Shown: piece after piece, positions 58,010 through 59,002 of the stretch
Position numbering within the stretch: position 1 is the first letter of the stretch
Layout: every line of letters starts with the position of its first letter
From: Candidatus Sulfomarinibacteraceae bacterium
GTDB taxonomy: Bacteria > Acidobacteriota > Thermoanaerobaculia > Thermoanaerobaculales > Sulfomarinibacteraceae
Reading direction: 5' to 3'
Assembly: GCA_963785275.1 (NCBI GenBank)
Contig: CAWAUY010000015.1
Location: forward strand, 43,228 to 107,227
Length of the DNA stretch: 64,000 bases
Notes under the pieces: generated by a model
Told to the model about the DNA's origin: nothing
Seen by the model: only the letters and a program-made list of their open reading frames with translations
The model's database searches: none
Program-made: the position numbers and the translations under genes

Positions 58010-59002
58010 TTATCCCATCCGAAAGGCGACGCCTGCCTGGTTATACCCTACCCCGGACCCGACCATCACGAGGAGCTGACCCGACGAAATTTTGCCTTGC
58101 TCCAGTGCGTCGTCAAGCGCGATGGGCACACACGCCGAGCCCGTGTAGCCCCATTTCTCCATGACGGTGTGCGTGCGCTCCATCGGCAGACCGAGATCGG
58201 CCATCACCAGCTCGATCGACGGTTTGCGGACCTGGGTGAAGATCGTGAAGTCGATATCCGACAGCTCGAACCCGCCGTTCGCGGCCAGCTTGCGCACCAC
58301 CGCGGGCCACCCGTCGTGGTTGATCTCGGGTGGATAGCGCTCGATCATCTTGACGGTGGTTCGGCCCTCGCGGACCGCCTCCTCGGTCGCGGGTTCAGCG
58401 GTCGCGCCGGCGTAAATGCCCCAGTGCCCATGGTAGAAACCGTCAGCCCTGAAGGCAGACGACACAAATCCCGGATCAGTCGACGGCTCGAGGACCGCCG
58501 CACCCGCGCCGTCGCCGTAGAAGAACACCATCGGGTCGTCGGGCGAAGCCAATTTCTGCATGTTGTAGACGCCGACCACCAGCACCGTCTTCAACGACGG
58601 GTTGGCGGCGATCAGACCGGCCGCGGTCGATGCGCCGGTCGGAAAGGACGCACACGCGCATCCGACATCGAAGGTGCCGGCGTTTTTTGCGCCGAGCTTG
58701 TGTTGCAGGACCACCGAGGTGGCCGGGGTGATGTAGTCCGGTGAATCGGTGCCGAGGATGATCAGGTCCACGTCCTCGGGTTTCCGGCCGGCCTTTTCCA
58801 GGGCCTGTTGCGCCGCCGGCAGCGCGATGTCGGAGGTACACCACTCCTCCGGGGCCCACCACCGGGTCAGGATCCCCGTCGACTCCTCCATCTTGTCGAC
58901 AAAATCCGGCAGGTGCGCAAAGCGTTCGCGCAGGGTATCGTTCGAAACTTCGTTCTCGGGGATGTACCGCCCCGTTGAGACAATTGATGCGAACCTCGTC
59001 AT
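58010..59002 (-). CDS. KASIII (FabH)-like thiolase-fold protein retaining Cys but lacking the His and Asn of the catalytic triad
   Basis: GGGAGG RBS before ATG 59002. [11 protein letters not shown] aligns with FabH [22 protein letters not shown] aligns with [25 protein letters not shown] aligns with [14 protein letters not shown]. Confidence 0.8.
   Translation of the reverse strand: [330 protein letters not shown]

Follow-up and report, generated by a model that had tools for sequence, protein, structure and literature searches.

FabH, the ketoacyl-ACP synthase III (KAS III) that initiates fatty-acid synthesis, uses a Cys-His-Asn triad; its transacylation half-reaction needs only the Cys and a backbone oxyanion hole, and mutagenesis indicates that without the His and Asn only decarboxylation and condensation are lost. 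Relatives of FabH carry out other reactions with altered catalytic sets. Thiolases such as acetoacetyl-CoA thiolase use Cys-His-Cys plus an Asn, HMG-CoA synthase (HMGCS) uses Glu-Cys-His, and OleA, which acts with OleBCD, has a FabH-like fold, keeps Cys-His-Asn and performs a non-decarboxylative Claisen condensation with the help of an additional carboxylate, a trans-acting Glu. The KAS III-like acyltransferases CerJ, DpsC and ChlB3/ChlB6, found in polyketide clusters with ACPs, transfer acyl groups through a Cys/Ser acyl-enzyme and keep a His (with an Asp or Asn) as base. To our knowledge, the non-decarboxylative KAS III-like condensing enzymes (OleA, CorB/MxnB and the PqsD type) all keep the His and usually the Asn, and we know of no precedent in this superfamily for an oxyanion hole built from Thr and Tyr. 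In PqsBC of alkylquinolone synthesis, PqsC keeps its His and needs a catalytically inactive partner, PqsB. The report on PqsBC (PMC4807248) describes PqsC as FabH-like, with an incomplete triad (no Asn) and a substrate other than malonyl.

Here we describe a KAS III-fold gene with a different catalytic set in a 64,000-nucleotide stretch (the window) of contig CAWAUY010000015.1 from a Candidatus Sulfomarinibacteraceae bacterium (Table 1). The ORF ends on the minus strand at 58010, stop codon included. The first start in the ORF listing is a GTG at 59008, but this codon falls within the ribosome-binding site (RBS) and homologues begin at the position equivalent to the ATG at 59002..59000; for these two reasons the ATG is, as read from the sequence, most plausibly the start. 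The GGGAGG RBS that an earlier, sequence-only reading of this DNA had pointed out is indeed present, 5 nt ahead of this ATG. Near-identical metatranscriptome contigs span the gene.

Table 1. Features of the KAS III-like gene and its neighbourhood in the window.
Feature	Position	Strand	Remarks
KAS III-fold gene, 330 aa	58010..59002	-	Asp86-Cys117-Thr256-Tyr286-Ser316-Cys291 signature
GGGAGG RBS	59008..59013	-	5 nt upstream of ATG 59002; read from sequence
Cys117 codon, nucleophile	58652..58654	-	Aligns with E. coli FabH Cys112
Thr256 codon ACC	58235..58237	-	FabH His244 position
Tyr286 codon TAC	58145..58147	-	FabH Asn274 position
Asp86 codon GAT, clade-specific	58745..58747	-	E. coli FabH Thr81 position (MAFFT)
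Ser316 codon	58055..58057	-	Replaces FabH Phe304
Cys291 codon, second cysteine, clade-specific	58130..58132	-	FabH Ser279 position
FabG/PhaB-like classical SDR	59219..59974	-	Just upstream of the KAS-like gene
Alpha/beta hydrolase, N-terminal transmembrane helix, GNSLG serine nucleophile	56888..57868	-	
AMP-forming acyl-CoA ligase, FadD13/MenE-like	55359..56891	-	
SCP2-type thiolase	53940..55157	-	
Alpha/beta hydrolase 2, GISYG nucleophile	52928..53818	-	PcaD-like, similar to short-chain PHA depolymerases
Alpha/beta hydrolase 3, GTSFG nucleophile	52134..52853	-	
TonB-dependent receptor gene	60094..62390	-	Compared with the intact 763-aa orthologue in locus L007
TetR-family regulator	62406..63068	-	Cluster head
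Intercistronic hairpin, inverted GAGTTTT heptamer arrays	57872..57976	-	Between the KAS-like and hydrolase genes

Pfam assigns the protein to ACP_syn_III_C (2.5e-22) and ACP_syn_III (2.9e-15), with no match to the Pfam thiolase domains. Its best sequence match in the PDB is a FabH (4dfe, 3e-43), and ChlB3 (7EQI, 2.2e-14) and PqsC (6.7e-12, a weak match) are also retrieved. An AF2 model built from the alignment (pLDDT 91.6) has a compact, confident KAS III fold; Foldseek against the PDB returned FabH structures at TM 0.84-0.89, all of them of the ordinary FabH type and none from the clade that carries Thr and Tyr at the two altered positions. Relative to the FabH enzymes of E. coli (1HN9/1EBL) and B. 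subtilis (FabHA, 8VD9), to which it is ~30-33% identical, the protein has the same length, a nucleophile Cys at the same helix N-terminus, a Gly-rich oxyanion loop and presumably the same dimeric architecture. These best fold and sequence matches, an adjoining FabG-like gene and the name 'ketoacyl-ACP synthase III' that PGAP and JGI give to the family would all suit a genuine FabH whose catalytic residues are unusual but which still starts the synthesis of fatty acids or secondary lipids. However, the protein scores below the curated NCBIfam family cut-offs for FabH (192.9 versus 249 bits for NF006829; 174.4 versus 292.1 for TIGR00747).

To place the catalytic residues, we aligned the protein with the three top-ranking FabH structures (HMMER) and with E. 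coli FabH from NC_000913.3 (MAFFT). The two methods agree on all three triad positions: the Cys is kept, the His is a Thr and the Asn is a Tyr at precisely the codons that the sequence-only reading had named, and this pattern is clade-wide. From the FTQ/PHQ motif to the C-terminus there is no gap in either protein, as that reading had held using an E. coli FabH text that proves identical to the database sequence. Profile and structure-aware alignments leave the His/Asn register unshifted, and close and distant homologues share the Thr and Tyr instead of the canonical triad, so that neither of the two refuting outcomes named in that reading (a shifted register or a local mutation) holds. The clade further differs from FabH in Thr81 to Asp, Ser279 to Cys and Phe304 to Ser changes, and in a P..N..WP motif that replaces the Met207-Phe213 flap; the positions of E. 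coli Trp32, Arg36, Arg151 and Arg249, which serve CoA-adenine and ACP docking, are variable. The His and Asn on which malonyl decarboxylation depends are gone, Arg249 and other docking residues are not conserved, and no acpP, fabD or fabF lies near the gene, whose neighbours are catabolic and transport genes rather than a fab operon. The genuine-FabH explanation, which is the current database annotation, is already contradicted by these residue and context tests and is extremely improbable; decarboxylation by the window protein is very unlikely, in agreement with the earlier proposal that it is probably something other than a true KASIII.

The substitutions extend far beyond this genome. We define the clade by its shared six-residue signature and by synteny, not by a robust tree: sequences with the D-C-T-Y combination form one clade in a crude neighbour-joining tree, with bootstrap values of only 38-41 of 100. 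A motif scan of species-representative genomes gave at least 600 stretches that carry the motif, and their hosts belong to Acidobacteriota, Bacteroidota and relatives, Chloroflexota and Proteobacteria; the clade as a whole was found across at least five phyla, and sediments are the source of many hosts. As judged by these sequence comparisons, the Thr/Tyr variant marks a deep clade of the FabH family rather than a local mutation. The KAS-like protein is the most conserved of its cluster, with 70-80% identity across acidobacterial classes compared with 45-65% for the hydrolase, ligase and SDR. Most loci hold a single KAS-like gene, and some Acidobacteriota have tandem copies, each ~70-77% identical to the window protein. 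Our literature search turned up neither an account of a Cys/Thr/Tyr KAS III or its locus nor biochemical data for any clade member.

Within the clade, the active site is conserved. The Cys is kept in all 139 Thr/Tyr sequences examined, and so are five further positions that by homology line the active site or lie near it; in one alignment (A1), Cys117 and Tyr286 are invariant, Thr256, Asp86 and Cys291 are nearly so, and the GxG oxyanion loop is conserved clade-wide. Ser316 lies two residues ahead of the one that supplies the backbone NH of the oxyanion hole, a loop position that we take, from published superfamily structure comparisons, to be that of thiolase Cys378. Position 92 is a Thr or Ser, as in the long-chain FabH of M. 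tuberculosis. This pattern (Asp86, Thr256, Tyr286 and Ser316, with the GxG loop kept) reads as that of a retuned active site and not a decayed one.

The same residues bear on the possibility that the protein is a non-catalytic or regulatory subunit, a PqsB- or PhlA-like partner that scaffolds or modulates the SDR, thiolase or ligase. Having the highest conservation in the cluster would fit many protein contacts, the canonical substrate-docking residues are lost, and the tandem duplicates of some Acidobacteriota could form heterodimers. However, catalytically inactive PqsB has lost the entire triad, whereas all 139 sequences examined here retain the nucleophile, along with the conserved Asp, Thr, Tyr, Ser and oxyanion loop, on a compact and confidently modelled KAS III fold; a non-catalytic role is therefore highly improbable. 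In addition, unlike PqsBC, the clade mostly has a single gene, lacks the His and has no pqs-type context. The sequence-only reading had offered an acyltransferase, a thioester shuttle or a non-catalytic partner in place of a KASIII; its doubt about a true KASIII holds up, and the last of its alternatives is disfavoured by the retained Cys and the five further conserved positions.

Asp86 raises another possibility. hhalign (probability 96.6%) aligns it with catalytic Glu79 of S. aureus HMGCS (1XPK), an acidic residue 31 residues ahead of the Cys. In an HMGCS- or OleA-like enzyme, this clade-specific Asp would deprotonate the alpha-carbon of acyl-Cys117, and the enolate would attack a ketone, an aldehyde or a thioester; alternatively, the enzyme would run backwards as a retro-aldolase. 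Product release would be through hydrolysis or CoA attack. Archaeal HMGCS models weakly match the N-terminal half of the protein (1.9e-17). Archaeal thiolase, HMGCS and DUF35 form a complex, and a Chloroflexota locus with an SCP2 thiolase and a DUF35 protein within ~3 kb after the KAS-like gene would complete these three partners; formally, the SDR, FabH-like protein, alpha/beta hydrolase and AMP-dependent enzyme also correspond to OleD/A/B/C. On the other side, the aligned residue is Asp and not Glu, hhalign finds no conserved counterpart of HMGCS His233, the His and Asn of OleA are absent, and the window protein is much shorter than HMGCS, without its C-terminal extension. HMGCS models score far under their cut-offs (63.3 versus 244 bits; 39.5 versus 353), and OleA structures match weakly (~1e-14) and mainly N-terminally, best over residues 21-134. 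DUF35 occurs in 1 of the 98 loci that we surveyed, the Chloroflexota one. The ligase is FadD13/MenE-like and the SDR a classical NAD-type FabG-like enzyme, whereas OleD is a different SDR type, and importers, regulators and a secreted depolymerase speak of catabolism, with no obvious place for such a condensation. We consider this chemistry quite improbable. An OleABCD-like olefin or beta-lactone cluster was rejected because the similarity to OleA is weak, the neighbours apparently belong to subfamilies other than those of Ole, and importers, a regulator and a depolymerase are encoded alongside. Kinship with HMGCS through a 'GSG' or 'YTGS' motif was also discarded, as hhalign places these motifs differently or only with indels.

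Gene context also bears on what the clade may do. Across the 98 non-redundant loci, a gene for CoA activation (ligase or transferase) occurs in 96%, an SDR gene no more than 6 kb from the KAS-like gene in 94% and an alpha/beta hydrolase gene in 89%, but one for an SCP2-type thiolase in only 58%; TetR regulators and transporters are frequent. The sequence-only reading had raised the question of whether the variant always co-occurs with ligase, hydrolase and thiolase: the first two do recur, and 'always' fails for the thiolase. Among the loci with annotated genes, neither ACP nor PKS genes were seen. Six Burkholderiales genomes of the Paucimonas type (L088-L093, P. lemoignei DSM 7445 among them) have the KAS-like gene between those for 3-hydroxybutyrate dehydrogenase (370 bits against a cut-off of 258) and the 3-oxoacid CoA-transferase ScoAB; no thiolase was detected in the flanking sequence retrieved. 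In Marinoscillum (four genomes) and a single Cyclobacteriaceae genome, an SDR-KAS-symporter-ligase-hydrolase-TonB-dependent receptor operon adjoins the gene for an extracellular depolymerase of short-chain PHA (317 bits against a cut-off of 150). In Chloroflexota, an enzyme resembling butyryl-CoA:acetate CoA-transferase takes the ligase's place. Together, these arrangements point to a service of the clade loci in polyhydroxybutyrate (PHB) and 3-hydroxybutyrate catabolism and not in fatty-acid synthesis. As judged from gene content, the Paucimonas and Bacteroidota layouts appear to provide genes for all steps from polymer to acetyl-CoA save thiolysis, which leaves the KAS-like gene without a step. 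Neither this catabolic context nor a thiolase-type retro-Claisen role was part of the sequence-only reading.

The window contains a related set of genes. The SDR carries the motif TGAAAGIG...KVAAWD, and the Asp that ends strand beta-2 suggests a preference for NAD(H). The GTG start of the ligase, which resembles medium- and long-chain ligases, overlaps the stop codon of the GNSLG hydrolase (GTGA); the closest solved relative of this hydrolase is 6i8w, and its real start is probably near 57850. The TonB-dependent receptor gene is readable only in three different frames. In the stretch between the KAS-like and hydrolase genes, the GAGTTTT heptamer has 13 matches versus 0.67 expected, and the hairpin has a dG of -49.3 kcal/mol (z -6.6). 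Between 48 and 64 kb, the window shows neither a depolymerase gene nor one for BdhA. Two other roles for the cluster were set aside. Remodelling of exogenous fatty acids or phospholipids with an MFS-acyltransferase (48292..50202) was dropped because this adjacency recurs only in L003 among loci with listed genes, and CoA-dependent catabolism of steroids or aromatics because FadD3, HsaD and BbsB-like matches fall far short of their cut-offs and genes for ring cleavage were not seen.

From what is observed, namely the fold, the replaced residues that the clade conserves, a gene context other than fab and the association with 3-hydroxybutyrate and PHB genes in other lineages, we infer a substrate, a reaction direction and roles for each residue and enzyme. 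Tentatively, with a probability of roughly 40%, we propose that the protein is catalytically active and, without decarboxylation, splits acetoacetyl-CoA in the manner of a thiolase, in a locus for the use of breakdown products of short-chain PHA (PHB). The TonB-dependent receptor would import esters and oligomers and the alpha/beta hydrolases would cleave them; the AMP ligase would activate 3-hydroxybutyrate (or a close 3-hydroxyalkanoate), and the NAD-type FabG-like SDR would oxidize the activated product to acetoacetyl-CoA (a 3-oxoacyl-CoA), an oxidative direction that its beta-2 Asp would fit. The FabH-like protein would then carry out the thiolase-type step: Cys117 would attack the 3-oxo carbon, the C2-C3 bond would break, the hydroxyls of Tyr286 and Thr256 would stabilize the acetyl-CoA enolate in place of the His/Asn pair, protons would be relayed via Ser316, Tyr286 or Asp86, and CoA would free the acyl group from the Cys as acyl-CoA. 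With acetyl-CoA in place of malonyl-ACP as carbon nucleophile or leaving group, machinery for decarboxylation would not be needed. Longer 3-hydroxyalkanoates are possible substrates, given the resemblance of the ligase to medium- and long-chain enzymes and the Thr/Ser at position 92.

The proposed enzyme would share with thiolases the superfamily fold, a CoA-dependent retro-Claisen reaction via an acyl-Cys, a pathway position that follows a 3-hydroxyacyl dehydrogenase and, putatively, a polar residue (Ser316) at the loop position of the thiolase acid/base Cys. Unlike them, it is not a thiolase by sequence; the second Cys and the His of thiolases are absent, with only the nucleophile Cys equivalent, and the proposed oxyanion hole consists of Tyr and Thr hydroxyls. 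A thiolase-type role would, on this analysis, make the clade loci complete pathways. Against it, the SCP2 thiolase of 58% of loci and a canonical thiolase next door in Marinoscillum-type loci mean that the step may already be covered and that the KAS-like protein may be doing something else.

One such function, and the main rival of our reading, is acyl transfer by the Cys alone, in which the acyl group on Cys117 is passed to another acceptor and no C-C bond is made or broken. In its most attractive version, CoA-dependent thiolysis of imported 3-hydroxybutyrate dimers or oligomers (O-to-S) would yield 3-hydroxybutyryl-CoA without ATP, and the adjacent SDR would oxidize this product; in another, the protein would be a CoA-to-ACP or CoA-to-hydroxyl transacylase. 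Acyl transfer is in essence also what the sequence-only reading preferred. The Cys is invariant and the FabH half-reaction does without His and Asn, the co-occurrence of separate thiolases would be explained, the neighbouring SDR would take the product, and the saving of ATP would matter if the many sediment hosts are energy-limited. However, CerJ, DpsC and ChlB3/ChlB6, which share the KAS III fold, keep their His base where this protein has Thr, and they belong to polyketide clusters whereas the clade sits among genes of primary catabolism. The ACP-docking Arg249 is not conserved and no ACP gene was seen in the annotated loci, the loci without any thiolase (about 40%) would be incomplete pathways, and the Paucimonas-type route would run via free acetoacetate (BdhA and ScoAB), so that 3-hydroxybutyryl-CoA is not obligatory. 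We regard acyl transfer as somewhat unlikely, and we keep thiolase-like cleavage of acetoacetyl-CoA as our preferred reading.

A bolder proposal, and an unlikely one, is that the clade is an unrecognized reaction class of the thiolase superfamily, in which a KAS III scaffold with an all-hydroxyl/carboxylate site of Asp, Thr, Tyr and Ser about the Cys provides a missing, widely conserved enzyme of environmental PHB catabolism. It could possibly replace thiolase through a Tyr/Thr oxyanion hole, as in ketosteroid isomerase; alternatively, CoA thiolysis of 3-hydroxybutyrate-oligomer esters could conserve the ester-bond energy and bypass ATP-dependent activation.

These results have implications for annotation, enzymology and PHB metabolism. 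A Cys enzyme of the KAS III fold that has no His or Asn but conserves Asp, Thr, Tyr and Ser would broaden what catalysis is known in the thiolase superfamily. Thousands of 'ketoacyl-ACP synthase III' entries in at least five phyla are almost certainly not starters of fatty-acid synthesis, an error that is carried into models of metabolism for Acidobacteriota, Bacteroidota, Ignavibacteria and other groups. Many microbes store carbon as PHB, which is also sold as a bioplastic, and in several lineages the locus lies together with genes for PHB depolymerase, 3-hydroxybutyrate dehydrogenase and the activation of acetoacetate. The clade, which occurs even in the model degrader Paucimonas lemoignei, may mark a concrete gap among the core enzymes of PHB catabolism, and one that is easily testable.

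The gene under study, which encodes a KAS III-fold protein (the KAS), is a minus-strand ORF that most likely starts at ATG 59002: a GGGAGG ribosome-binding site, read from the sequence, lies 5 nt upstream, homologues begin at the equivalent position, and the alternative start of the ORF finder (GTG 59008) falls within the ribosome-binding site. Its fold places the protein among the KAS III-like members of the thiolase superfamily. Pfam matches both KAS III domains (ACP_syn_III, 2.9e-15; ACP_syn_III_C, 2.5e-22), the closest solved relatives are FabH enzymes (4dfe, 3e-43; 8vd9, 3.5e-41), and an alignment-based AlphaFold model (pLDDT 91.6) gives TM 0.84-0.89 against FabH structures. 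We placed the active-site residues by HMMER alignment to the three best FabH structures and by MAFFT alignment with the authentic E. coli FabH from NC_000913.3; the two agree at all three catalytic positions, and the stretch from the motif to the C-terminus is gap-free in both proteins. The sequence-only reading, which had reported a retained Cys with His replaced by Thr and Asn by Tyr, was right in its coordinates and codons and in the E. coli FabH text it quoted.

Features of the window and of related loci (window positions unless a locus handle is given)
Feature	Position	Strand	Detail
KAS gene	58010..59002	-	330 aa
Cys117	58654..58652	-	opposite E. coli FabH Cys112
Thr256 (ACC)	58237..58235	-	opposite FabH His244
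Tyr286 (TAC)	58147..58145	-	opposite FabH Asn274
Metatranscriptome matches in KAS gene	58046-58185, 58294-58756		one mismatch each
TonB-dependent receptor gene	60094-62390	-	versus L007 orthologue: aa 1-334 frame -3, aa 92-544 frame -1, aa 543-763 frame -2
Alpha/beta hydrolase 2	52928-53818	-	aligns with 296-aa orthologue from 53818; first ATG/GTG/TTG 53722
MFS-PlsC fusion	48292-50202	-	LplT-like MFS transporter, PlsC-type acyltransferase
GAGTTTT arrays	57872-57976, 53832-53948		also near 55176-55210, 59176-59217
Second FabH-like gene	L001 275-1306; L002 226-1257		343 aa
209-aa protein gene	L080 8102-8731		no family match; upstream of hydrolase-KAS pair
345-aa hydrolase gene	L080 8829-9866		upstream of Paucimonas-type KAS
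~475-aa protein gene	L087 15219-16655		no family match; between hydrolase and TonB receptor

Searching 5.8 billion proteins brought up over 120 clusters that are 78-99% identical to the KAS; the few labelled with an organism are acidobacterial MAGs. When wider relatives were collected from a 50%-identity representative library and aligned, Cys/Thr/Tyr was present in every full-length relative down to ~35-44% identity, with one outlier at ~30%; canonical Cys/His/Asn FabH sequences start only at ~39%. The Cys is kept in 139/139 Thr/Tyr sequences, and scanning the GTDB species genomes for the motif gave at least 600 matching stretches. A second subfamily, from Bacteroidota, Chlorobiota, Ignavibacteria and Balneolaceae, accounts for 7318 of the 8000 candidates scored, at E <= 1e-40. 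A crude NJ tree groups the D-C-T-Y sequences as a single clade, with bootstrap support of only ~40%, so we define the group by signature and synteny. The alignments indicate that Cys/Thr/Tyr is a feature of this clade, ruling out a local lesion.

Set against 15 canonical FabHs and that of E. coli, 18 diverse clade members (alignment A1) show further, nearly invariant replacements: Asp86 for Thr81, Ser316 for Phe304 (two residues ahead of the oxyanion-hole NH), Cys291 for Ser279, Thr/Ser92 for Phe87, and a P..N228..WP motif for the Met207-Phe213 flap. The E. coli FabH CoA contacts Trp32, Arg36 and Arg151 and the ACP-docking Arg249 are not conserved. The KAS differs from FabH in defining triad, family cut-offs, docking residues and context; it lacks the defining His of the CerJ/DpsC-type acyltransferases, the His and partner of PqsBC and the His/Asn of OleA, and is no sequence member of the thiolases. 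In hhalign, A1 aligns Asp86 with the catalytic base Glu79 of S. aureus HMG-CoA synthase (HMGCS; query identical to PDB 1XPK) at 96.6% probability, which would suit HMGCS/OleA-like enolate chemistry via Asp86; the KAS lacks the defining His of HMGCS and scores below its cut-offs, and we consider such chemistry unlikely. We regard the group as a KAS III-like clade that is uncharacterised and has Cys/Asp/Thr/Tyr/Ser as its active site; our literature search found no description of it, and comparison of the model found no solved structure of a Cys/Thr/Tyr member.

These features have mechanistic implications. Because the His/Asn pair is lost, the malonyl-ACP docking residues are unconserved, FabH family scores are sub-threshold and the context is catabolic, decarboxylative Claisen condensation is very unlikely. 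On the same grounds the earlier view that this is not a true KAS III stands, and a true FabH, despite the shared fold, is highly improbable. The non-catalytic partner also proposed is disfavoured: with the Cys universal and the substitutions conserved, polar and in catalytic loops, a dead enzyme is unlikely, and a purely non-catalytic role quite unlikely. Tandem Cys/Thr/Tyr copies, each ~70-74% identical to the window protein, occur in seven acidobacterial loci (L030, L098, L102, L103, L114, L136, L146), where heterodimers are possible. Loci L001 and L002 encode a second atypical FabH-like protein (~26% identical) between an alpha/beta hydrolase and an AMP ligase, upstream of RNase R. Its aligned signature, TTEE/Cys/Leu/His at the Asp86, Cys, His244 and Asn274 positions, suggests that this too is an uncharacterised family of KAS III-like proteins, with a Glu resembling that of HMGCS; the window counterpart of this region would fall past 64000.

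In the window, the minus-strand order is TetR regulator, TonB-dependent receptor, FabG-like SDR, KAS, membrane-anchored alpha/beta hydrolase, AMP ligase (its start overlapping the hydrolase stop), SCP2-type thiolase and two more alpha/beta hydrolases, a block also found in other long contigs. All three hydrolases have serine nucleophile boxes (GNSLG, GISYG, GTSFG). The SDR (TGAAAGIG...KVAAWD) ends strand beta-2 with an Asp; this is the classical sign of a preference for NAD(H) and fits an oxidative role. Neighbours taken from the window and from three other lineages were mapped onto every fetched locus. Among the 98 non-redundant loci flanked on each side by at least 6 kb, a CoA-activating enzyme lies within 6 kb in 96%, an SDR in 94%, an alpha/beta hydrolase in 89%, a TetR regulator in 62% and an SCP2 thiolase in 58%. 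Co-occurrence of the Thr/Tyr clade with its neighbours, raised in the sequence-only reading, is thus borne out. No ACP, fabD or fabF was seen among KAS loci with annotated genes.

Other lineages link the clade to PHB catabolism, a context absent from the earlier interpretation, as was a thiolase-like function. In six Burkholderiales genomes (L088-L093), including Paucimonas lemoignei DSM 7445, a model PHB degrader, the KAS ends a small operon after an uncharacterised 209-aa protein and a 345-aa hydrolase, flanked on one side by the gene for a genuine 3-hydroxybutyrate dehydrogenase (370 bits; cut-off 258) and on the other by those for ScoAB 3-oxoacid CoA-transferase. In L080 the hydrolase has a Lys/Ala-rich C-terminal tail, KVKRASWAGKAKRVQKPAVVDGSIVSKAKKQKARI; PHB-granule proteins such as PhaM and PhaF have similar granule/DNA-binding tails. 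Four Marinoscillum genomes and one Cyclobacteriaceae genome carry an SDR-KAS-Na+/solute symporter-AMP ligase-hydrolase-unknown-TonB receptor operon at most ~5 kb from, and mostly adjoining, the gene for a genuine extracellular short-chain PHA depolymerase secreted by T9SS (NF050058, 317 bits versus 150). Orthologues of the two genes without a family match, one from each layout, occur in L088-L093, L166-L172 and L175. The SDR-KAS-symporter operon recurs in Chondrinema, Pontibacter, Ignavibacteria and Balneolaceae and, in part, on a short Calditrichaeota contig, with no recognisable depolymerase in the fetched flanks. An MFS transporter replaces the symporter in a Chloroherpetonaceae genome, and on a Chloroflexota plasmid a butyryl-CoA:acetate CoA-transferase-like enzyme replaces the ligase, followed by SCP2 thiolase, DUF35 protein, hydrolase and ABC importer.

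Activation proceeds either from 3-hydroxybutyrate (3HB) through acetoacetate or through 3HB-CoA, both routes meeting at acetoacetyl-CoA (3-oxoacyl-CoA). The genes of the Paucimonas and Bacteroidota layouts account for the whole route from polymer to acetyl-CoA apart from acetoacetyl-CoA thiolysis, and the KAS is the one enzyme left unassigned. Parsimony therefore favours giving it a thiolase-type retro-Claisen reaction on a KAS III scaffold; our confidence in this reading is 0.4. The acyl-enzyme would form on Cys117, the Tyr286 and Thr256 hydroxyls would replace His/Asn as hydrogen-bond donors to the acetyl-CoA enolate, and Ser316, which by analogy with published superfamily alignments takes the place of the acid/base Cys in the thiolase loop, may form a proton relay with Asp86. 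The main weakness of this assignment is that thiolases are already encoded: the SCP2 enzyme in 58% of loci, and a canonical acetoacetyl-CoA thiolase in 4/5 of the Marinoscillum/Cyclobacteriaceae genomes. Both favour the main rival, in which the Cys mediates acyl transfer, for instance the thiolysis of 3HB-oligomer esters by CoA, yielding 3HB-CoA for the SDR next door; we consider this rival less likely than the thiolase-type reaction.

We infer that the window carries the acidobacterial form of a locus for using short-chain PHA or 3-hydroxyalkanoates; window 48-64 kb showed neither a depolymerase nor a BdhA gene. Longer 3-hydroxyalkanoates may also be substrates, since the ligase resembles FadD13 and position 92 has a small residue. 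Among the matches listed, protein identity is highest in an unclassified Acidobacteriota MAG (95%), followed by Ca. Sulfomarinibacteraceae MAGs (89-93%). The metagenomes with the window DNA come mainly from marine sediment and salt marsh; some are soil and sediment samples. Near-identical metatranscriptome contigs from two datasets cover parts of the KAS gene and also the neighbouring hydrolase and ligase. This points to transcription of the operon in situ, although DNA can be present in such libraries.

Several neighbouring features are unusual. The TonB receptor gene matches its intact 763-aa orthologue (L007) only across three frames, which implies at least two frameshifts and would make it a pseudogene or an assembly error. 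Alpha/beta hydrolase 2 may have an unusual start codon or a sequence error at its 5' end; a metatranscriptome contig there has a 1-nt deletion and insertion at 53717/53720. The MFS-PlsC fusion, seen near the cluster only in the window and L003 among loci with listed genes, covers only the first 590/1140 positions of the Aas-type model and so lacks the acyl-ACP synthetase domain. The heptamer GAGTTTT occurs in inverted arrays (13 found versus 0.67 expected) that form long intercistronic hairpins (dG -49.3 kcal/mol, z -6.6; -42.8 kcal/mol, z -3.3) and at which many unrelated metatranscriptome contigs join, suggesting a dispersed palindromic repeat family of the host organism.

The KAS clade is very large and systematically mis-annotated, and it is tied to an important, well-studied pathway in which simple assays could test its function.
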